Part shown: positions 1 through 7,264 of the stretch, in pieces | How the letters are laid out: every line of letters starts with the position of its first letter | How positions within the stretch are numbered: the first letter of the stretch is position 1 | Source of the DNA: a virus | Taxonomy: Duplodnaviria > Heunggongvirae > Uroviricota > Caudoviricetes | IMG/VR virus record: IMGVR_UViG_2565956631_000003 | Span: 1-7,264 of that record | Reading direction: 5' to 3' (one strand) | DNA: 7,264 nucleotides | Notes under the pieces: model-generated | Database searches by the model: none | What the model was told of the DNA's origin: nothing | The model's input: only the letters and a program-made list of their open reading frames with translations | Position numbers and translations under genes: made by a program

Positions 1-63
1 CGTTGGAAGGTATTTGCAGTTTTCGCAGATTATGTCGGTGATACTTCGTCGCTGTCTCGCCAC
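1..63 (-). CDS. Partial ORF downstream of ninB, 3' end beyond the window; possible nin-region gene with a C-x2-C motif
   Basis: The ninB reading frame stays open after its stop (199-201) to position 1 on the minus strand. The best start is GTG at 63..61, preceded by AGGAGG (73..68). Translation [21 protein letters not shown]... Not in the ORF track because no stop lies within the window. GTG starts at 180 or 114 are possible but lack a Shine-Dalgarno. Confidence 0.3.
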
Positions 64-198
64 ACGTCCTCCTTTTCCTGCGGTAGTGGTACACCCCTGT
101 TGGTGTTCTTTCACACCGGAGACACCATCGATTCCAGTAAGGTTGATTTGGTCGGAAGCGGTTATCTTCTTTGCATTCACCGCACCGATAACATCGCA

Positions 199-639
199 TC
201 ATGCTGCCCTGTCTCCCCATCTTGCTTTCCACTCCAGAGCTAGTCGCGCTTCATCTGACCACTTAACTCCACGCTCTGTACCGAATGCCTGTATAAGCTC
301 TAATAGCTCCGCAAATTCGCTTACACACATCCTGCTGGTTGACTTGCCTATTACCACAAAGCCATTCCCGGCAAGGTTAGGAACAACATCCTGCTGCTTT
401 AATGCTGCGGTAAACACACACTTCCAGCTTTCTGCATCCAGCCAGCGACCATGCCATTCAACCTGACGAGAGACGTCACCAAGGCAAGCCCAAAGCTTTC
501 GGTTTTGGTCTAAGCTGCGGTTGCGTTCCTGAATGGTTACTACGATTGGTTTGATTGGGTCTGGAAGGATTTGCTGGATAGCTTGAATGGCGTTCTGCTG
601 ATGAATGGGGCTTCTTAGTTCAAACGTTCGTTTCCTCAT
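199..639 (-). CDS. ninB: NinB recombination protein (lambda NinB/Orf family)
   Basis: 146-aa [59 protein letters not shown]..., matching my recollection of lambda NinB almost along its full length. AGGTGA Shine-Dalgarno before ATG 639..637. Position downstream of the replication genes is as in lambda/P22. Confidence 0.88.
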
Positions 640-874
640 GGCTCACCTTCTGCACGCATGGATTAATTAACGCCAAAATAGCTTCTGGTTTCTCAATAAC
701 ATCGAACCGCTCACCACTTGCCATTCTTACAATCGTAAATCCGGCATCAAATAGGGTTTCGATGTTGTCAGAGTTAACGTACAAGGGCTCATATGCACTT
801 CTGGTGCTTTCTATCACGCCTGTGCTTGGTGGCTGATAGATGCTGCATTGCATGGTTAATTTTATAAATGGCAT
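620..874 (-). CDS. Hypothetical 84-aa protein, unrecognised
   Basis: ORF with ATG at 874..872 preceded by AAGGAG at 9-nt spacing. Its 3' end overlaps the ninB start by 20 nt, and it lies 5 nt downstream of the preceding gene, so it is operon-packed. No family recognised by eye. Confidence 0.6.
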   Translation of the reverse strand: MPFIKLTMQCSIYQPPSTGVIESTRSAYEPLYVNSDNIETLFDAGFTIVRMASGERFDVIEKPEAILALINPCVQKVSHEETNV

Positions 875-878
875 ATAC

Positions 879-1199
879 TCACTCCTTCAATTTGACTCCA
901 GCAGCTCGGATGTTTTCCTCATAAGCATCCATTGCATCACCGAAGCCATTGGAATAATCAACAGTAAACCCTTTGGCTAATGCTTCTCTGCTGTCGATAA
1001 ACTTTGGCGCGGTTATTTCAATAGCTGATCGCGATGCCTGCCACGTTTGCCAGTGGCCTTGAACATCGTCCATCACATATTGACCACCAATATTACCACT
1101 GCCAATTTCATGGTGATTTTCAGGGTAACGGATAAGGTCTGAGGATTCGCCTCCACGTCGCAACCAACTTTCTTCAAACTGCTTTCTTGATTCGTCCAT
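879..1199 (-). CDS. Hypothetical 106-aa protein, unrecognised
   Basis: ORF with ATG at 1199..1197 preceded by GAGGG at about 9 nt. Acidic soluble protein with a Gly-rich segment (HEIGSGNIGGQY). Its start lies 15 nt after the stop (1219-1217) of the upstream membrane-protein gene. Confidence 0.6.
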   Translation of the reverse strand: MDESRKQFEESWLRRGGESSDLIRYPENHHEIGSGNIGGQYVMDDVQGHWQTWQASRSAIEITAPKFIDSREALAKGFTVDYSNGFGDAMDAYEENIRAAGVKLKE

Positions 1200-1216
1200 C
1201 GATACTTACCCTCAGT

Positions 1217-1423
1217 TCAACTCACAAAACGCCACGCCATTTTTGCTACAGCGACAGGCATAACACCGATAATCACCCACAGGAAAATGCTACCGAAAAG
1301 CACACCCACCAGGTCTTTACCTTCGCCTACCAACCGGACAAAACTGCTGGCAACAACAATGAACGTCGCCACCATCCACATAGCACCGAGAATCCTCAAT
1401 GCAGAGAAAATTAACTCAGCCAC
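1217..1423 (-). CDS. Small (68 aa) membrane protein with two predicted transmembrane helices
   Basis: GTG start at 1423..1421 with a GGGGGAGAG Shine-Dalgarno 6 nt upstream. Sequence (M)AELIFSALRILGAMWMVATFIVVASSFVRLVGEGKDLVGVLFGSIFLWVIIGVMPVAVAKMAWRFVS shows two hydrophobic stretches of about 20 aa separated by a short charged loop. Confidence 0.55.
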   Translation of the reverse strand: MAELIFSALRILGAMWMVATFIVVASSFVRLVGEGKDLVGVLFGSIFLWVIIGVMPVAVAKMAWRFVS

Positions 1424-1438
1424 GATTTACTCTCCCCC

Positions 1439-1470
1439 AAATAAAAAGGCCCGCGATTACCAGCAGGCCT
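1439..1470 (-). terminator. Intrinsic terminator after the helicase gene (tR2-like position)
   Basis: Minus-strand RNA GGCCUGC-UGGUAAUC-GCGGGCC forms a 7-bp GC-rich stem (one G-U pair) with an 8-nt loop, followed by UUUUUAUUU. Located between the helicase stop and the next gene. Confidence 0.55.
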
Positions 1471-1498
1471 GTTACAAGCTCAGTGATGTAGATGGTCA

Positions 1499-2935
1499 TC
1501 AGAATCCTCCTTTCTTCTTGGACTGCGGTTCCTCGCGTTCACGGCGGCGCATTTCAGCAGACTGTTGGTCTGTGTCATAAATAGCGCCATTTGCCTGTAT
1601 GCAATACACCGTGCCGGTATTGCCATGGCGATTGAGGCGAAGGATTAGTTCGGTTTCACCAGGAGGAACGCTGTCATCAAAAGCACCTTCACGATGGATC
1701 CCCACCCAATAATCGCAATCCTGTTCAATCTGCCCTGTATCTCGTGAGTCACTTGGTAATGGGCGTTTATTGGTTCGGCTTTCCAGTGCGCGGTTAAGCT
1801 GTGTCAGAAGCACAACAACACAATCAAGCTCTTTGGCAAGGTTCTTCAGTCCTTTGGTGATCATGCCGTAAGCAAGGTCGTTGCGATCGGCCTTCTCAGC
1901 GGTCATTAGTGTCAGGTAATCGACCAGAATCATGCCAACACATCCTTTTTCTCGCTTGATTCGACGACTTTCGCTGACGATTTGAGCCAGAGATAATCCC
2001 GGCGTGTCGTCGATGTAAAGCAGGTCGATTTCACTCAAGCGATTGGCTGTTTCGATCGCCCTGTTGAAGTCACCATCGTAATCACCCTGATAGCCGTCAT
2101 CGGCGTCATTTGTCGCCGGAAGGTAAAATATATTCGGGTTAACACCAGACTTCTGCCCTACCAGTTTTTCCAGTATCTGGTCACCTGGCATTTCAAGGCT
2201 GAACATCAGAGCTGGCTTTTTCTCATGCACTGCGCAGTTGATTGCCATCTGGCTGTATAGCGTCGTTTTCCCCATCTTAGGGCGAGCGCCAATGACAAAC
2301 AGAGAGCCTTTAACCAGACCTTTCGGTGACAGCATCCTGTCCAGCGATGGGATCCCTGTGCTCATTCCTCGTTGTTCGCCTGACGGGTCAAATCGCTTCT
2401 CAAGGTCGCTAACCCAGTCTTCCATGACCTCACCAAATGAGCGAAGGCCGCGACGCGATCCGGTTTTTGCATGGTCTGTCAGTTGCGTGAAAATCGCCTG
2501 AATAGCTTCGTACTTCTGCGTTGCAGTCATTCCGTTGCGGGAATAGAGCAATTCCGTCGCTTCAGTCATGCGGTTGATGGCGTAGCGTTCCATTGCGGTT
2601 TCACGAACCTGCATTGCATAGGCAACGATGTTTGCTGCGCTTGGCGTGTTCTTTGCGATCTCAGCGATATAAGCAAAACCGCCAACAGACGCCGTTAACG
2701 ATTTACGCTCCAGTTCATCGAAAAGCGTCAGGCCATCTACTGGCTTTTGCTCACGGTGCATTCTGGTTATTTCTTCGAAAAGGATTTTGTGTGGTCGACT
2801 GTAAAATGAATCAGGCTTCAGCATCGCCAGGACTTTCTGGACGCGCTCACTGCTGTCATCATCCAGAAGCAATCCACCAATCACCGCCTGCTCTGCCTCG
2901 ATGCTATGGGGCGGCGCATAAAAATTATCGGTCAT
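1499..2935 (-). CDS. Replicative DNA helicase, DnaB family (P22 gene 12-like)
   Basis: DnaB-like N-terminal region (SIEAEQAVIGGLLLD), Walker A GARPKMGKTT, and a RecA-like C-terminal core. Start taken as ATG 2935..2933 (MTDNFYAPP...) with GAGGG 9 nt upstream; the ORF track's 2950 start is an upstream in-frame GTG. The start overlaps the stop of the upstream initiator gene (ATGACCGATAA). Confidence 0.9.
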   Translation of the reverse strand: MTDNFYAPPHSIEAEQAVIGGLLLDDDSSERVQKVLAMLKPDSFYSRPHKILFEEITRMHREQKPVDGLTLFDELERKSLTASVGGFAYIAEIAKNTPSAANIVAYAMQVRETAMERYAINRMTEATELLYSRNGMTATQKYEAIQAIFTQLTDHAKTGSRRGLRSFGEVMEDWVSDLEKRFDPSGEQRGMSTGIPSLDRMLSPKGLVKGSLFVIGARPKMGKTTLYSQMAINCAVHEKKPALMFSLEMPGDQILEKLVGQKSGVNPNIFYLPATNDADDGYQGDYDGDFNRAIETANRLSEIDLLYIDDTPGLSLAQIVSESRRIKREKGCVGMILVDYLTLMTAEKADRNDLAYGMITKGLKNLAKELDCVVVLLTQLNRALESRTNKRPLPSDSRDTGQIEQDCDYWVGIHREGAFDDSVPPGETELILRLNRHGNTGTVYCIQANGAIYDTDQQSAEMRRREREEPQSKKKGGF

Positions 2936-3824
2936 CGTGTTCACCCTCACGAACTTTCAGGTAGGTATTATCGTTAAGCAGGAAATCAAATCCCTTTTTG
3001 TGCCAGACGGTTCCGCGTTGATGGTTTAGGCGCTCTTCGAACATCCATCGGCAATTTTCGCCTACGTAGCTCAAATAATTTCTCCAGTCCTGCATCGTGA
3101 ACCCATGCCCGTCAAGCTGGCGTGTTATCACTCCGGCTTTTCGCCAGAACGTTCGGATCTGGTTTTTACGCTTGTCATTCAGTGCGCGGATTTTTGGCGC
3201 TTCAGGAAGGATTTCGTGGTAAGCATCGACAACATCCTGACAGCTAACGGAAGGTTTTTTCTTGTCAGACTTTTTGTCTGCTGCGGTACTCTCTAATACG
3301 TCAGTATTAGAGATAATATTATTATATTCTTTATCTGTGGTAATTTGCTGGTAATCTGCTGGTACAGTATTGCTTGCAGGCATTGGTATTGCTGGCTTTG
3401 AGGTGGTAATTTGCTGGTAATCTGCTGGTACAAAATTTGACTGATAATCGTCATATTTCTCTACCGAGAAAACTGAGAATTTACCGTGTGAAACCCAGTC
3501 AATCATGCCGAGCTTTTTGAACTTTCTAAGCAGGTACTGAACGCGATCTGGTTTGAGTCCTGTTTCAAACGCCAGAGAGTTTCTACCGCCAAGTAGCTTC
3601 CCTCTGCCTACCAGAATTTCTCCTGCGTCAGTCATTACATACTCAGGCGTATGCTTTGCTTTGAGGATTAAGTGAACCCACAGATGCGCAGCTTCTGCGT
3701 CCTTGTAAAACGGCACATCCATAATTTTACGGTGCAGCAAGGCATACCCCTTACCGCTGCTTTGATGCGGTTGTTGTAGCCTTCTGGCCTCTCTGGCTTC
3801 GGCTAGATTAGATATGTTACTCAT
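2925..3824 (-). CDS. Phage replication initiator (lambda O / P22 gp18 functional analogue) containing the origin
   Basis: 299-aa ORF immediately upstream of, and coupled to, the helicase. N-terminal region looks like a winged-helix DNA-binding domain. A central duplicated peptide [10 protein letters not shown] is encoded by the iteron DNA. Family assignment is by position and architecture, not a confirmed match. Confidence 0.75.
3305..3431. repeat. Replication origin-like iteron array with flanking AT-rich tract, inside the initiator gene
   Basis: Two perfect 30-bp copies of GTGGTAATTTGCTGGTAATCTGCTGGTACA at 3336-3365 and 3402-3431. Each holds two sub-iterons of about 11 bp (GGTAAT[T/C]TGCTGG), with degenerate copies between (GGTATTGCTGG at 3384-3394). 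Adjacent AT-rich stretch at 3305-3335 (ATTAGAGATAATATTATTATATTCTTTATC) lies downstream in the gene's direction, as in lambda ori. Confidence 0.65.
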
Positions 3825-3963
3825 GACCTTTCTCCTTCTGCATCAGCTTCACTTTTTCCAACTCAGCCCGGAATCGACCAGGCTGCTTGAAGCTGGACAG
3901 GAAGCGATCACGTAGTATGTGTTTGTGAATTTTGTCCTGGTAAGGACTGAGTTGTTTTGTCAT
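3817..3963 (-). CDS. Small 48-aa basic ORF between cII and the initiator gene
   Basis: ATG at 3963..3961 preceded by GGAG at 5 nt. Translation [48 protein letters not shown]. Its TAA stop overlaps the initiator start (ATGAGTAA), suggesting translational coupling. Absent from the ORF track, presumably because it is short. Confidence 0.35.
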
Positions 3964-3973
3964 AATTACTCCT

Positions 3974-4049
3974 GTGGATTGATCCAGTAATTCCCTCAGA
4001 ATTGCATATCAATTTGCTTAAAATCCTCGGTGGCGGCCGGGGATTTTTT
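3974..4049 (+). ncRNA. oop: oop-like antisense RNA overlapping the 3' end of cII
   Basis: -10 CATAAT at 3961-3966 with a weak -35 TGGTAA at 3938-3943. Plus-strand intrinsic terminator at 4025-4049: CCUCGG-UGGCGG-CCGGGG stem-loop followed by AUUUUUU. Predicted transcript of about 76 nt. GAUCCAGUAAU...CCUCAGAA resembles my recollection of lambda oop RNA. Confidence 0.55.
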
Positions 4050-4292
4050 CTTTGTGATTTCATCAAGCGCATACTTAAAAGCCCTGCTAATCGGACTGAT
4101 GTCTGATGCCATTCCGAAAGCACACAAGACCGAAGCAATAAATCTCCAGTCCGTTCTGCTTATCTTCGATTCATGACAGCCAATCATCTTTGCCAGACCG
4201 CGCTGGGTAAGCGTTGACAGGTTGATTAGTAAATCAGTTTCAGCGCGATCAATTTCTCGCTGTGTTGGCTTGCTGTAGCTTGCTTGTGCCAT
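3996..4292 (-). CDS. cII: CII-like transcriptional activator
   Basis: 98-aa ORF whose C-terminus ...[18 protein letters not shown] is close to my recollection of lambda CII (...TNKKRPAATERSEQIQMEF). Helix-turn-helix segment ...SKISR.... Sits between cro and the replication genes. AGGAAA Shine-Dalgarno upstream of ATG 4292..4290. Confidence 0.85.
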
Positions 4293-4302
4293 TTGTTAAT
4301 TT
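4270..4302 (+). promoter_or_regulatory. PRE-like CII-dependent promoter (antisense to the cII 5' end, directed toward the repressor gene)
   Basis: TTGC-N6-TTGC direct repeat at 4270-4273 and 4280-4283 (TTGCTGTAGCTTGC), the CII-binding architecture of lambda pRE. Weak -10 TAATTT follows 13 nt after the second repeat (4297-4302). Position inside the start of cII matches lambda. Confidence 0.45.
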
Positions 4303-4350
4303 TCCTATATTGGTATTGAGTTATAGCGGCACACCCAATGGATTTGCCGC

Positions 4351-4390
4351 TGATGTTTGCTCACCCGGTTAGAGGTGAAAGGCCAGAACT
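4351..4390 (-). promoter_or_regulatory. nutR (boxA + boxB) N-utilisation site
   Basis: Minus-strand boxA GCTCTTTAACA (4390..4380). boxB hairpin UCACCU[CUAACC]GGGUGA (4368..4351) has the same 6-nt loop as the nutL boxB. Located between cro and cII, as in lambda. Confidence 0.6.
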
Positions 4391-4407
4391 GTTAAAGAGC
4401 AATTTGC

Positions 4408-4593
4408 TTATGCCGCTTGGCGGTAAGCACTTTCTTGATACTTCAGGGCGCCAGCTGTAACGATTTCCAATCGATAGGCGTCTTTCTCTGGGATAACTTC
4501 TTTCCACTGAGAGACTGCTGCATCGCTAATGCCTAGTGCTTTAGCAACAGCACGCTGGGTTCCGAAGTGGTCAATAACATCTTTTTTGTACAT
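4408..4593 (-). CDS. cro: Cro repressor (P22 Cro-like, 61 aa)
   Basis: MYKKDVIDHFGTQRAVAKALGISDAAVSQWKEVIPEKDAYRLEIVTAGALKYQESAYRQAA matches my recollection of P22 Cro. GGAG Shine-Dalgarno 7 nt upstream. Divergent from the repressor gene across the operator region. Confidence 0.9.
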   Translation of the reverse strand: MYKKDVIDHFGTQRAVAKALGISDAAVSQWKEVIPEKDAYRLEIVTAGALKYQESAYRQAA

Positions 4594-4607
4594 AGACTCG
4601 CTCCGAA

Positions 4608-4673
4608 ATTAAAGAACACTTAAATTATCCACCAAAGGAATCTTAAGTCAAGTTTATTTAAGATGTCTTAACT
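4608..4673. promoter_or_regulatory. Right operator region with three P22-type operator sites and divergent PR/PRM promoters
   Basis: Three 18-bp sites fit the P22 operator pattern ANTNAAGNNNNCTTNANT: 4608-4625 ATTAAAGAACACTTAAAT, 4631-4648 ACCAAAGGAATCTTAAGT, 4656-4673 ATTTAAGATGTCTTAACT. PR on the minus strand: -35 TTGACT (4651..4646), 16-bp spacer, -10 GATAAT (4629..4624). The repressor ATG at 4674 has no Shine-Dalgarno, so it may be leaderless from PRM. Confidence 0.7.
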
Positions 4674-5324
4674 ATGAATACACAACTGATGGGTGAGCGT
4701 ATTCGCGCTCGCAGAAAAGAACTCAAGATTAGGCAGGCTGCCCTTGGAAAGATGGTTGGCGTGTCTAATGTTGCTATTTCCCAATGGGAGCGATCTGAAA
4801 CTGAGCCCAATGGCGAAAACCTATTGGCCTTAGCCAAGGCTTTGCAGTGCTCCCCTGATTACCTGTTGAAAGGAGAGGATAGTCTTTCAAACATTGCCTA
4901 TCACAGCAGGCATGATCCAAGAGGTTCGTATCCTCTAATTAGTTGGGTAAGCGCAGGATGTTGGATGGAAGCTGTAGAGCCATATCATAGGCGTGCAATA
5001 GATAACTGGTACGACACAACGGTAGATTGTTCTGAAGACTCTTTTTGGCTCGACGTTAAAGGCGATTCAATGACTGCCCCGGCAGGACTGAGTATTCCTG
5101 AGGGGATGATTATTCTCGTCGACCCAGAAGTCGAACCACGTAATGGAAAGCTGGTAGTCGCCAAACTTGAAGGAGAAAACGAGGCGACATTCAAAAAGTT
5201 AGTTATTGATGCCGGTAGAAAATTCCTGAAACCACTCAATCCACAATACCCAATGATTGAAATCAATGGGAACTGTAAAATCATTGGCGTTGTCGTTGAT
5301 GCCAAGCTAGCAAACCTTCCTTAA
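4674..5324 (+). CDS. c2: Prophage repressor, P22 c2-type (HTH plus S24 LexA-like autopeptidase domain)
   Basis: 216-aa ORF MNTQLMGERIRARRKELKIRQAALGKMVGVSNVAISQWERSE... with an N-terminal helix-turn-helix, an Ala-Gly cleavage site (VSAG-CW), a catalytic Ser in GDSM and a downstream Lys. Near-full-length match to my recollection of the P22 c2 repressor. Confidence 0.92.
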   Translation: MNTQLMGERIRARRKELKIRQAALGKMVGVSNVAISQWERSETEPNGENLLALAKALQCSPDYLLKGEDSLSNIAYHSRHDPRGSYPLISWVSAGCWMEAVEPYHRRAIDNWYDTTVDCSEDSFWLDVKGDSMTAPAGLSIPEGMIILVDPEVEPRNGKLVVAKLEGENEATFKKLVIDAGRKFLKPLNPQYPMIEINGNCKIIGVVVDAKLANLP

Positions 5325-5349
5325 GGGGCTTTCGCCCCTTTTTTATTTC
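5323..5349 (+). terminator. Intrinsic terminator downstream of the repressor gene
   Basis: AAGGGGC-TTTC-GCCCCTT hairpin (5323-5340) followed by TTTTTTATTT. Confidence 0.6.
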
Positions 5350-5388
5350 CCGTTAAAAATCAAAGACAAACTAAATTCACACCCATAA

Positions 5389-5442
5389 AATTAAGTTTTC
5401 TTCAAAAATGCACTTGACCAATAAATTAAGAAGTCTTAAATT
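5389..5442 (+). promoter_or_regulatory. Left operator/promoter region (OL sites and PL)
   Basis: Two P22-type 18-bp operator sites: 5389-5406 AATTAAGTTTTCTTCAAA and 5424-5441 AATTAAGAAGTCTTAAAT. PL: -35 TTGACC (5414-5419), 17-bp spacer, -10 TAAATT (5437-5442), directed toward N. The second operator overlaps the spacer and -10. Confidence 0.6.
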
Positions 5443-5488
5443 TAAGCCATCAGCAGGACGCTGGAAGCCAAACGGAACAGATTGGCAG

Positions 5489-5528
5489 GCTCTTTAACAT
5501 CGACGGACTCTCAACCTAACCGTTGAGA
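5489..5528 (+). promoter_or_regulatory. nutL (boxA + boxB) N-utilisation site
   Basis: boxA GCTCTTTAACA (5489-5499). boxB hairpin UCUCAAC[CUAACC]GUUGAGA (5509-5528), a perfect 7-bp stem with a 6-nt loop. In the PL leader upstream of N. Confidence 0.65.
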
Positions 5529-5638
5529 CCAGAACTTGAGTGGTTTTGGGGATGGCGCGAATTGCAGCTGCAAGACAGCGATCGAGAAGATAAGCACCTC
5601 GACGCGTCATGCGCCAAAGCCACTTAAAGGAGACCATC

Positions 5639-5944
5639 ATGGTAACCATTGTCTGGAAAGAATCCAAAGGTACGGCAAAAAGCCGCTACAAAGCTCGCAG
5701 AGCAGAACTTATTGCCGAGCGACGCAGTAATGAAGCACTGGCGCGAAAAATTGCTCTAAAGCTCTCTGGTTGCGTCAGAGCAGACAAAGCAGCATCACTC
5801 GGAAGCATTTGCTGCAAGAAGAAAGAAGAAGTCGTTCGAAAAAATAGAAGTATTTATTACAAGGATTCAAACCCATTAGGAAACAAAATACATGCAGTCC
5901 AAAAAATAAAATTGTACAGTAAACTACCGTACGGTGCTTATTGA
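5639..5944 (+). CDS. N: N-type transcription antiterminator (phi21-like arginine-rich motif)
   Basis: AAGGAG at 5627-5632, 6 nt before ATG 5639. N-terminal MVTIVWKESKGTAKSRYKARRAELIAERR is the arginine-rich boxB-binding motif I recall for phage 21 N. First gene after nutL. The in-frame ATG at 5609 lacks a Shine-Dalgarno. The 3' third of the gene is markedly AT-rich. Confidence 0.8.
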   Translation: MVTIVWKESKGTAKSRYKARRAELIAERRSNEALARKIALKLSGCVRADKAASLGSICCKKKEEVVRKNRSIYYKDSNPLGNKIHAVQKIKLYSKLPYGAY

Positions 5945-5946
5945 GT

Positions 5947-6285
5947 ATGCTTATGGTGAAAAAGACTATTTATGTTAATCCTGACCGCGGACAAAACAGA
6001 AAAGTATCTGATAGAGGTCTTACATCTCGAGACAGGAGGAGAATAGCGAGATGGGAAAAGAGGATAGCATATGCATTAAAAAACGGTGTAACACCTGGAT
6101 TTAATGCTATAGATGACGGTCCTGAATATAAGATTAATGAAGACCCAATGGATAAAGTTGACAAAGCATTAGCAACACCATTTCCTCGCGATGTCGAAAA
6201 AATTGAAGATGAAAAATATGAGGATGTAATGCACAGAGTTGTTAATCACGCTCACCAACGAAATCCAAATAAAAAATGGTCATAG
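5947..6285 (+). CDS. Hypothetical 113-aa protein in an AT-rich segment immediately after N
   Basis: ORF begins at the N stop (TTG 5941, ATG 5947 or 5953; no clear Shine-Dalgarno, so the start is uncertain). Arg-rich N-terminal half (RGQNRKVSDRGLTSRDRRRIARWEKR) and acidic C-terminal half (EDPMDKVDK...EKIEDEKYED). AT-rich codon usage unlike the flanking genes. No family recognised. Confidence 0.5.
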   Translation: MLMVKKTIYVNPDRGQNRKVSDRGLTSRDRRRIARWEKRIAYALKNGVTPGFNAIDDGPEYKINEDPMDKVDKALATPFPRDVEKIEDEKYEDVMHRVVNHAHQRNPNKKWS

Positions 6286-6309
6286 CACACTTCGGTGGGT
6301 TTTTTATTG
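6286..6309 (+). terminator. Possible weak terminator (tL1-like position)
   Basis: Short CAC-UUCG-GUG hairpin followed by GGGUUUUUUAUU. The stem is weak; the U-tract is strong. Confidence 0.3.
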
Positions 6310-6418
6310 TCTGAACTAACCGAATTTATTACAGCAAGCCACGCAGTGAAATGGGTGTGACTTGTGTTGGTCGCCAGAAAATGAAATTAGGCAGCAAACC
6401 ACTTATTTGAGGTGATAT

Positions 6419-6505
6419 ATGGAAGAAGAATTTGAAGAGTTCGAAGAGCATCCTCAGGATGTGATGGAACAATACCAGGACTATCCGTATGACTACGACT
6501 ATTGA
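6419..6505 (+). CDS. 28-aa highly acidic, aromatic-rich micro-ORF overlapping the ral start
   Basis: GAGGTGA Shine-Dalgarno 6 nt before ATG 6419. Translation MEEEFEEFEEHPQDVMEQYQDYPYDYDY. The TGA at 6503-6505 overlaps the ral ATG (6489) by 17 nt. Confidence 0.4.
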   Translation: MEEEFEEFEEHPQDVMEQYQDYPYDYDY

Positions 6506-6689
6506 TAAAAATCAATGGTGTGGACAATTCAAGCGATGCAATGGATGCAAGCTGCAATCGGAATGCATGGTTAAGCCTGAAGAAATGTTTCCTGTAATGG
6601 AAGATGGGAAATATGTCGATAAATGGGCAATACGAACGACGGCAATGATTGCCAGAGAACTTGGTAAACAGAACAACAAGGCTGCCTGA
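6489..6689 (+). CDS. ral: Ral antirestriction protein (lambda Ral-like, 66 aa)
   Basis: MTTTIDKNQWCGQFKRCNGCKLQSECMVKPEEMFPVMEDGKYVDKWAIRTTAMIARELGKQNNKAA matches my recollection of lambda Ral. Four Cys (C-x5-C-x2-C-x5-C). Early-left operon position downstream of N. Confidence 0.7.
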   Translation: MTTTIDKNQWCGQFKRCNGCKLQSECMVKPEEMFPVMEDGKYVDKWAIRTTAMIARELGKQNNKAA

Positions 6690-6728
6690 TGGTGGCCTTT
6701 ATTTTTGGCATAAACAACAGAGGCTAAC

Positions 6729-7025
6729 ATGGAATTTAAAGGTACTGAAGGTAAGTGGGAAATAATGATGGATGGCGATGAGATTAAAATCATCCAGGCA
6801 GACTCACTTGAAAATGGCGCAGGCTGGCGTTCGTATATTGCAATCTGTGAGGAAGTTCAATGTATTGAAGATGCCAATCTAATAGCGGCAGCACCTGACC
6901 TTCTCGAAGCACTTCAGTTATTACTTAAGCAATCCAAAAATAGAACAACGACAACATATCCAGAATGGTATGGAGCTGTTAATAAAGGTCTTGCAGCAAT
7001 CAGCAAGGCTCTGGGAGGTGAATGA
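6729..7025 (+). CDS. Hypothetical early-left protein with an ANLIAAAPDLLEAL motif (possibly Ead/Ea22-like)
   Basis: 98-aa ORF with GAGG Shine-Dalgarno 5 nt upstream. The NLIAAAPDLLEAL motif recurs in small lambdoid early proteins by my recollection. Family assignment is tentative. Confidence 0.55.
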   Translation: MEFKGTEGKWEIMMDGDEIKIIQADSLENGAGWRSYIAICEEVQCIEDANLIAAAPDLLEALQLLLKQSKNRTTTTYPEWYGAVNKGLAAISKALGGE

Positions 7026-7234
7026 TGTGCGAGTTTTATGAAGCAGATATCAAACGCCCAGAAATGGCAAGTGATGCGACATTACGTGATTACTTCGCTG
7101 CTAAGGCTATGGCAGCAATAGTGCGCAGATGGGACGGACATTCCTTTGGCGGTGGACAGAATTCACCACAGTACAAAGAATTAGCAGATGATGCCTACTT
7201 TATTGCTGATGCCATTCTCAAAGCTCGCGAATAA
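7022..7234 (+). CDS. Hypothetical 70-aa protein, translationally coupled to the upstream ORF
   Basis: ATGATG start overlaps the upstream stop (GGAGGTGAATGATG), with GGAGG as Shine-Dalgarno. The true start may be ATG 7025. No family recognised. Confidence 0.55.
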   Translation: MMCEFYEADIKRPEMASDATLRDYFAAKAMAAIVRRWDGHSFGGGQNSPQYKELADDAYFIADAILKARE

Positions 7235-7264
7235 GCACTGTGTATTCATTCCAACGAGTGAATA

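Follow-up and report, generated by a model that had tools for sequence, protein, structure and literature searches.

The window, by which we mean the whole stretch of 7,264 nucleotides analysed here (positions 1 to 7,264 of the IMG/VR record IMGVR_UViG_2565956631_000003), holds the immunity and early region of a mosaic lambdoid phage or prophage of E. coli. The genes and signals that frame the segment of interest are the following.

199-639, minus strand: ninB
1499-2950, minus strand: DnaB-like helicase gene
2925-3824, minus strand: O
3996-4292, minus strand: cII
4408-4593, minus strand: P22-type cro
4674-5324, plus strand: LexA-family repressor gene (cI)
5323-5345: strong terminator of the LexA-family repressor gene
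about 5414-5442: pL, found by a consensus promoter scan
6419-6505: acidic open reading frame of 28 codons, where the window continues like phage 21
6489-6689: ral, the anti-restriction gene of the pL operon

Two open reading frames annotated without a function follow ral and close the layout. No database record matches the window as a whole; the best match is phage mEp235, which is 98.5% identical over positions 1-6411. The stretch between pL and the acidic reading frame contains the N gene, the nun gene and the signals and junctions around them.

5639-5944, plus strand: N antitermination gene of phage-21 specificity, 101 aa, chimeric (protein alignments; PHROG 271, E 7e-31)
5807-5944, plus strand: variant 3' end of N, AT-rich and linked to nun; 97-98% identical, from 5827 onwards, to the non-coding N remnant that precedes nun in HK022
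5852-5861, plus strand: left copy of the 10-nt exact direct repeat ATTTATTACA, covering Ile-Tyr-Tyr codons of N; spacing of the copies 472 nt
5892-5897, plus strand: putative -35 hexamer of the nun promoter, ATGCAG, inside the N coding sequence (homology to the phage O276 annotation)
5915-5920, plus strand: putative -10 hexamer of the nun promoter, TACAGT (homology to the phage O276 annotation)
5956-6285, plus strand: nun, transcription arrest/termination factor gene, 109 codons counted from GTG 5956 (matches to 6ALG and PHROG 5632)
6013-6087, plus strand: arginine-rich motif, Nun residues 20-44 (26/26 identical to the lambda boxB-bound peptide of PDB 1HJI chain B)
6232-6282, plus strand: polymerase-inserting tail, Nun residues 93-109 (HRVVNHAHQRNPNKKWS), identical to 6ALG chain N
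6286-6305, plus strand: nun terminator, a short hairpin followed by T6 at 6300-6305 (folding energy), weakened by a C-to-A change at 6287
6324-6333, plus strand: right copy of the direct repeat, forming the sharp right junction of the cassette (repeat search and phage 21 alignment)
6324-6410, plus strand: displaced phage-21-type N 3' remnant (IYYSKPRSEMGVTCVGRQKMKLGSKPLI, then stop) (phage 21 DNA identity; protein alignment)

The AT-rich segment and its junctions

The sequence-only reading of this DNA had pointed to an abrupt AT-rich segment at 5815-6310, and sliding GC analysis bears this out. The segment has 35.9% GC (0.359-0.366), against 45.7% in the whole window and 48.2% in the 415 nt upstream. 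Only 0.3% of the 496-nt windows are as poor in GC, every one of them starting at 5813-5843, and the steepest left-to-right fall of the entire window lies at 5823 (0.20, with 150-nt arms), showing that composition is not uniform. The end of the segment had been placed at a U-tract near 6300. The T6 run does lie there, behind its short hairpin, but the right edge is less abrupt than this implied, with no sharp compositional boundary and 42.6% GC still prevailing over 6311-7264.

Comparison with phage 21 delimits the segment from the other direction. DNA identity to phage 21 amounts to 99.4% over 5300-5638, 98.8% over 5639-5799 and 84.6% over 5800-5838 (98.1% over 5300-5838 as a whole); DNA-level similarity is gone after 5861 and resumes over 6318-6721 at 98.5%. 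Relative to phage 21 the window thus carries 472 extra nucleotides between flanks that are 98-99% identical, and a single stretch of the phage 21 sequence (locus L001, 2017-2032) aligns to both 5846-5861 and 6318-6333. The insert comprises the divergent AT-rich N 3' end, the nun promoter (by annotation homology), nun and its terminator. Its left boundary is fuzzy, being a gradient within 5800-5861 and not a single point. Downstream of the insert, the stretch that we describe as the displaced N 3' remnant is annotated by the NCBI pipeline as a partial 'regulator' pseudogene in E. coli MLI108K3. The proposal of a horizontally acquired moron is supported in so far as the segment is a mobile, moron-like cassette: the 472 nt have no counterpart in phage 21, and the same segment occurs in the different context of HK022.

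The N gene itself consists of two parts. Codons 1-56, including those for the arginine-rich motif, are identical to phage 21 N, and the last 45 residues are a divergent homologous variant; Pfam returns only a sub-threshold match to N_peptide. A junction inside N and a chimeric C-terminus had been suspected from the letters alone, and the alignment, in which identity to phage 21 stops after residue 56, agrees with both. The variant C-terminus lacks the canonical polymerase-binding form and keeps only RK..IYY.K....G......QKIKL.SK.P. The tail of phage 21 N is the one that resembles lambda N, which marks the AT-rich tail as the unusual variant. A lambda-type N on a metagenomic contig (locus L012) has the same variant motif, YKDSNPFGNKIHAVQK, suggesting that the variant N end is probably functional; the N upstream of nun is presumably complete and working. 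Full-length counterparts of this N do exist in known phages, a finding that the sequence-only reading had held would speak against a chimera, but only in mEp235, mEpX1 and Kapi1, which have the same chimeric N-nun. Within the phage collection, all full-length matches (residues 1-99 or 1-101) are in phages that also carry nun.

The hexamers of the putative nun promoter match, letter for letter and at the same distance from each other, those of the 'nun gene promoter' annotated in O276, a phage that carries the HK022 immunity region. The consensus scan of the window picked up pL and did not pick up the nun promoter. The assignment is made by homology only and concerns a promoter that is weak by consensus, and we treat it as a candidate. 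In a prophage, nun would most likely be transcribed from this weak promoter of its own within the N 3' end, and during lytic growth it would also be read from pL. A promoter lying inside the variant N 3' end would explain the constant association of this piece of N with nun. The primary paper on nun promoters is that of King, Madsen and Weisberg (2000). At the other end of the gene, the terminator folds at -3.2 kcal/mol in the window, against -10.3 in mEp235 and -11.8 in HK022. The C-to-A change at 6287 is private to the window and absent from six of six relatives (mEp235, HK022, O276, PA28 and two E. coli prophages). With its terminator impaired, the cassette may therefore not be a closed transcription unit in the window.

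The nun gene and its predicted role

What is the protein encoded after N, which the sequence-only reading did not recognise? It is Nun of coliphage HK022, matching PDB 6ALG chain N, a chain of solved structure, at 108 of 109 residues (E 3e-71, residues 1-109) and PHROG 5632, 'Nun-like transcription termination factor' (E 2e-68). The single difference is S11R (Ser11 to Arg), outside both the arginine-rich motif and the tail, and the mEp235 and HK022 records annotate Nun at the homologous place. The length of 114 aa given to the reading frame at the outset results from counting mechanically from TTG 5941. In database entries the gene opens with ATG 5947 (112 aa) or ATG 5953 (110 aa), and residue 1 of the 109-residue chain of 6ALG is the Val of codon GTG 5956.

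The description of the protein as bipolar, Arg-rich and then acidic, was nearly right: residues 1-45 have 14 K/R against 4 D/E and residues 46-92 have 6 against 14. It missed the last 17 residues, which are basic and His-rich again. This C-terminal tail is conserved in nearly all aligned full-length Nun homologues, and the residues studied by mutation (H93, R94, N97, H98, H100, R102, K106, K107 and W108; for their roles see PMC5386594) are all present in the window copy. The gene is intact in all relatives examined, where disruption had been named as a sign against the initial proposal, and its pN/pS of 0.04-0.15 (against HK022, PA28 and mEp235) indicates purifying selection. Searches with Pfam and PADLOC gave no model match to Nun, be it of a defence, an anti-defence or any other kind, which fits the 'hypothetical protein' labels that the gene bears in the RefSeq records of E. 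coli genomes that were inspected.

In the published account of HK022 Nun, the target of the arginine-rich motif is the boxB hairpin in the nascent nut RNA of lambda, for which it competes with lambda N, the C-terminal segment enters the elongation complex and blocks translocation, and Mfd releases the arrested complex, ending early lambda transcription prematurely (PMC5386594, PMC4496710). Nun is present at a low concentration, about 100 nM, in HK022 lysogens, and is a superinfection-exclusion factor expressed by the prophage against phage lambda and not against host defences (PMC5386594, PMC4496710). We infer that the same mechanism holds for the window copy on account of its 99% identity to HK022 Nun. 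The N-terminal arginine-rich helix would recognise and bind boxB of the lambda nut RNA and the His/Lys/Trp tail would wedge into the elongating RNA polymerase, stopping its translocation. The early transcription of a superinfecting lambda would be aborted and the lysogen would survive.

The nut sites of the window bear on whether the resident phage is exposed to its own Nun.

5489-5528, plus strand: nutL, phage-21 type (boxA 5489-5496, boxB 5509-5528), identical to the annotated phage 21 nutL
4361-4400, minus strand: nutR, phage-21 type (boxA 4393-4400, boxB 4361-4378), identical to the annotated phage 21 nutR

The boxB hairpin of nutL folds at -9.5 kcal/mol. A search for lambda boxB with up to 3 mismatches found none anywhere in the window. 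With nut sites and an N motif of the phage-21 type and with no lambda boxB, the resident phage is probably spared by its own Nun; these features are consistent with a Nun that would exclude lambda, with its lambda-type nut sites, but not the resident phage.

Origin and distribution of the cassette

HK022, HK75 and O276 share window positions 5827-6302 at 96.4% identity. In HK022 the segment lies in quite a different context, after putL, and the 114 nt upstream of nun are a remnant of an N tail, in frame over 39 codons with 'EVVRKNRSIYCKDSNPLGNKIHAVQKIKLYSKLPYGAY', in which the stop codon has become TGG. The presence of an N 3' remnant upstream of nun in a phage without N indicates that its nun cassette and the one in the N-nun phages have a common ancestor. 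A tblastn candidate for an extension of this remnant into putL (N residues 22-62) was rejected, as alignment with shuffling gave no significant similarity upstream of 5827 (p about 0.2-0.27).

The arrangement of N, nun and remnant recurs in mEp235, mEpX1, vB_EcoP_Kapi1, Lambdavirus PDP110P1, PA28 and a set of Stx1a-converting phages, with N-nun identities to the window of 97.5-99% in mEp235, mEpX1 and Kapi1 and 91% in the PA28/Stx1a group. The right junction is common to all N-nun phages. The left one varies, lying at about 5800 in the window and mEp235, at about 5840 in PA28 and at 5827 in HK022, a combination consistent with a single founding event and later homologous exchange inside N. The cassette would have joined an N gene of the phage 21 type through recombination around the conserved Ile-Tyr-Tyr codons, a process that left the 10-nt direct repeat and put a displaced copy of the former 3' end of N on the downstream side of nun.

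Among complete E. coli genomes, 213 of 5426 (about 4%; coverage at least 80%) have the nun arrangement, including O26, O103 and O55:H7 strains. A collection of 5.8 billion proteins holds Nun homologues in only 20 clusters at 90% identity, some of them 60-68% identical, as in Citrobacter braakii. The literature search returned no paper on the co-occurrence of N and Nun or on Nun-like variants, which does not prove that none exist.

Tails of the Nun type were also seen on other proteins. The gene immediately after N in phage 434 encodes a protein of 289 aa in which an unrelated head of 270 aa precedes a Nun tail. ORF43 of Hafnia phage Pocitis76 (88 aa), likewise immediately after N, is 50% identical to lambda N 1-52 over its first 52 residues and continues with the Nun tail; the phage's own N carries a motif different from this lambda-N-like head. 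Two contigs from the Logan metagenomes with HK022-like putL encode a Nun homologue and then a second, overlapping Nun-like gene with the same tail and a head similar to the motif of phage 21 N (12/30 identical; pairwise E 2e-4). Logan metagenome contigs are the sole source of the protein with the phage-21-like head: a tblastn search of 50,697 phage records gave no further copies, nor did scanning 185,579 representative genomes for its sequence pattern.

Taken as a whole, the segment is very probably the nun cassette of HK022-type lambdoid phages, seated within the 3' end of an N gene of the phage 21 type. Could its AT-richness nevertheless be a by-product of coding, without foreign origin? The N tail and Nun are indeed rich in Lys, Asn, Ile and Glu, and the stretch in which a promoter is embedded, the variant N 3' end, is the most AT-rich of all (31.5% GC over 5815-5944). 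The bias is, however, strongest at third positions, with GC3 of 0.26 in the 3' part of N and 0.24 in the nun reading frame against 0.40 in the 5' part of N, 0.42 in cI and 0.41 in ral, which locates it at synonymous sites. Nun homologues of 60-68% identity are moreover encoded at about 45% GC, so that the protein itself does not demand AT-richness, and phage 21 cleanly lacks the segment. We consider an origin of the bias in coding constraints very improbable. Still less credence can be given to the suggestion of the sequence-only reading that the gene encodes an early anti-defence or host-takeover factor. As the first gene after N in the pL operon, nun is also expressed early in lytic growth, and overproduction of Nun is reportedly toxic to E. 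coli (PMC4496710). On the other side, the protein is 99% identical to one whose structure has been solved and whose role is defined, no defence or anti-defence model matches it, and anti-restriction in this operon belongs to ral (6489-6689). Mutations in nun are reported to affect neither the lytic growth of HK022 nor lysogenisation (PMC4496710), which, together with the arrest of lambda, identifies Nun as a lambda-directed superinfection-exclusion factor (PMC5386594, PMC4496710).

The polarity of the event can be read in two ways. The order N, nun, N 3' end might be the older state in this lineage, and a deletion between the two copies of the N 3' end, or between the ATTTATTACA repeats, would then have removed the cassette from phages that resemble phage 21. 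A deletion between the repeated N 3' ends regenerates exactly the intact phage 21 N, the shared right junction implies a single old event, and the displaced remnant is undecayed. However, the cassette is distinct in both GC and GC3, it occurs also in the unrelated put-type context of HK022, the C-terminus of the phage 21 type is shared with lambda N and looks canonical, and a tandem duplication of the N 3' end still requires a prior acquisition event. Loss from an older composite is in our judgement unlikely, and the identity of the gene as nun would be unaffected by it. Insertion of the nun cassette into a phage-21-type N is probably the direction of the event.

The finding itself contains little that is new, as it re-identifies a textbook gene in an arrangement that is already known and annotated in mEp235 and mEpX1. 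Its practical value lies in better annotation of nun: by homology, the E. coli genomes counted above would possess a lambda-excluding Nun beside a phage-21-type N. The anatomy of the locus offers a clean worked example of a moron entering within a gene, where the replacement gene end also houses the putative promoter of the moron.

Relation to known systems

Nun might belong to a modular family of prophage arrest factors, whose members would share a conserved tail that jams the polymerase, VNHAHQRxPxKKW, and would differ in their RNA-targeting heads, each taken over from the N protein of a rival phage. We put this forward tentatively, as a possibility that we would not yet favour. The phage-21-N-like head of the second Nun-like gene would in that case target phages like the one in the window, the specificity of a resident N would as a general rule be orthogonal to the head of the resident Nun, and the AT-rich variant N 3' end could act as an adaptor with a built-in promoter, by which the cassette might be joined to any N gene. 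If this were true, Nun-type exclusion would be programmable, with several specificities, in contrast to the unique, lambda-only exclusion that has been described (PMC4496710).

Of the known systems, phage 21 is the nearest for the regulatory framework: its nutL, nutR and pL region are 99% identical to those of the window. The phage 21 N differs in its C-terminal 45 residues, which read KDSNPLGNKIHAVQKIKLYSKLPYGAY in the window and SKPRSEMGVTCVGRQKIKLGSKPLI in phage 21.

HK022 is the nearest for nun. Its Nun (UniProt P18683 according to the GenBank note of phage 434) agrees with the window protein in 108/109 residues, and the arginine-rich motif and arrest tail are the same. The 114 nt upstream with the promoter hexamers are likewise shared, and in both cases nun belongs to the pL operon and lies on the same flank of cI. 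HK022 lacks N, however, and its nun stands after putL and the 39-codon N remnant and is followed by IS903, whereas in the window a complete phage-21-type N precedes nun, and the N 3' remnant and ral come after it.

The phages mEp235, mEpX1, Kapi1 and PA28 and the Stx1a phages have the same chimeric N, the same nun and the same right junction with the 3' remnant of the phage-21-type N. They differ from the window in the genes further downstream, as is ordinary in mosaic genomes, and in the terminator mutation, which is private to the window.

Morons in the sense of Juhala et al. (2000) are characterised in PMC3594210 as extra DNA between conserved neighbours, with deviant GC and a promoter and terminator of their own. 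With lambdoid morons such as HK97 gene 15 (PMC3594210), the nun cassette has in common the extra DNA, the deviant GC and a product acting in superinfection exclusion. It differs from them in being placed within the 3' end of a gene and not between genes, and in supplying a replacement gene end with the putative promoter embedded in that coding sequence.

Nun-type tails in other proteins

The C-terminal tail of Nun, the HK022 transcription arrest factor, recurs at the end of proteins whose N-terminal portions differ:
L012 (metagenome contig, Logan ERR3406188), 2824-3117, and L013 (metagenome contig), 473-766: second Nun-like gene, 97 aa
L010 (Hafnia phage Pocitis76), 1290-1556: ORF43, 88 aa, directly downstream of the Pocitis76 N gene
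L006 (phage 434), 377-1246: 289-aa protein of PHROG 12139, encoded directly 3' of N

In both metagenome contigs the 97-aa gene and the stop codon of a Nun homologue overlap. The 97-aa product joins an N-terminus, MVKITINPAKDNSKNRRYKERGELIAKRKA, similar to the arginine-rich motif of phage 21 N, to the Nun arrest tail YKVNHAHQRRPDKKWS. This protein could be a Nun acting against phage-21-type nut sites, that is, against phages like that of the window. The Pocitis76 ORF43 looks like a natural hybrid of an N head and a Nun tail: residues 1-52 match lambda N at 50% identity (E 4e-15), the protein closes with the Nun tail RVVNHAHQRNRHKKW, and the arginine-rich motif of the phage's own N differs. We observe the exact Nun tail VNHAHQRNPNKKWS also at the C-terminal end of the phage 434 protein, the first ~240 residues of which have no significant similarity to Nun; the 3' DNA common to nun and the phage 434 gene is 81% identical over 63 nt.

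The Logan contig carries a further gene downstream of an HK022-like putL and the Nun homologues:
L012, 3617-3940: lambda-type N (MDAQARRRERRAEKQAEWKAANP...)
The variant C-terminal motif of this N, YKDSNPFGNKIHAVQK, is that of the AT-rich N end in the window.

Signals flanking nun

The stem of the nun terminator bears a private C-to-A change at window position 6287, with which the hairpin is less stable, at -3.2 instead of about -10 kcal/mol. None of the relatives set against the window, six in all (mEp235, HK022, O276, PA28 and two E. coli prophages), shares this change. In a lysogen, transcripts from the nun promoter might read through into a small ORF (6419-6505) and ral. The region holds four terminator-like sites where 1.0 would be expected, among them the following:
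window 5914-5932, minus strand, opposite N and nun: terminator-like hairpin with 8 pairs and a T-rich run after it
It overlaps the -10 element and expected start site of the nun promoter, and could serve to stop antisense transcription or have arisen by chance.

In PA28 and Stx1a phages the end of N is altered:
L005 (PA28 and Stx1a phages), 1237-1674: N end and nun region
Here a 1-nt deletion close to the N end extends the N frame by 13 codons into the start region of nun; the nun gene is intact and carries 7 substitutions. Its terminator hairpin is degraded.

Small early-left ORFs

Short reading frames lie downstream of nun:
window 6729-7025: 98-aa ORF
window 7022-7234: 70-aa ORF
window 6419-6505: very acidic 28-codon ORF (MEEEFEEFEEHPQDVMEQYQDYPYDYDY) between the N remnant and ral, overlapping the ral start
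The sole matches of the 98-aa and 70-aa ORFs, PHROGs 1273 and 2201 respectively, are of the function-unknown class. The acidic ORF, conserved in both phage 21 and DE3, has a PHROG of its own (16060, E 7e-19).
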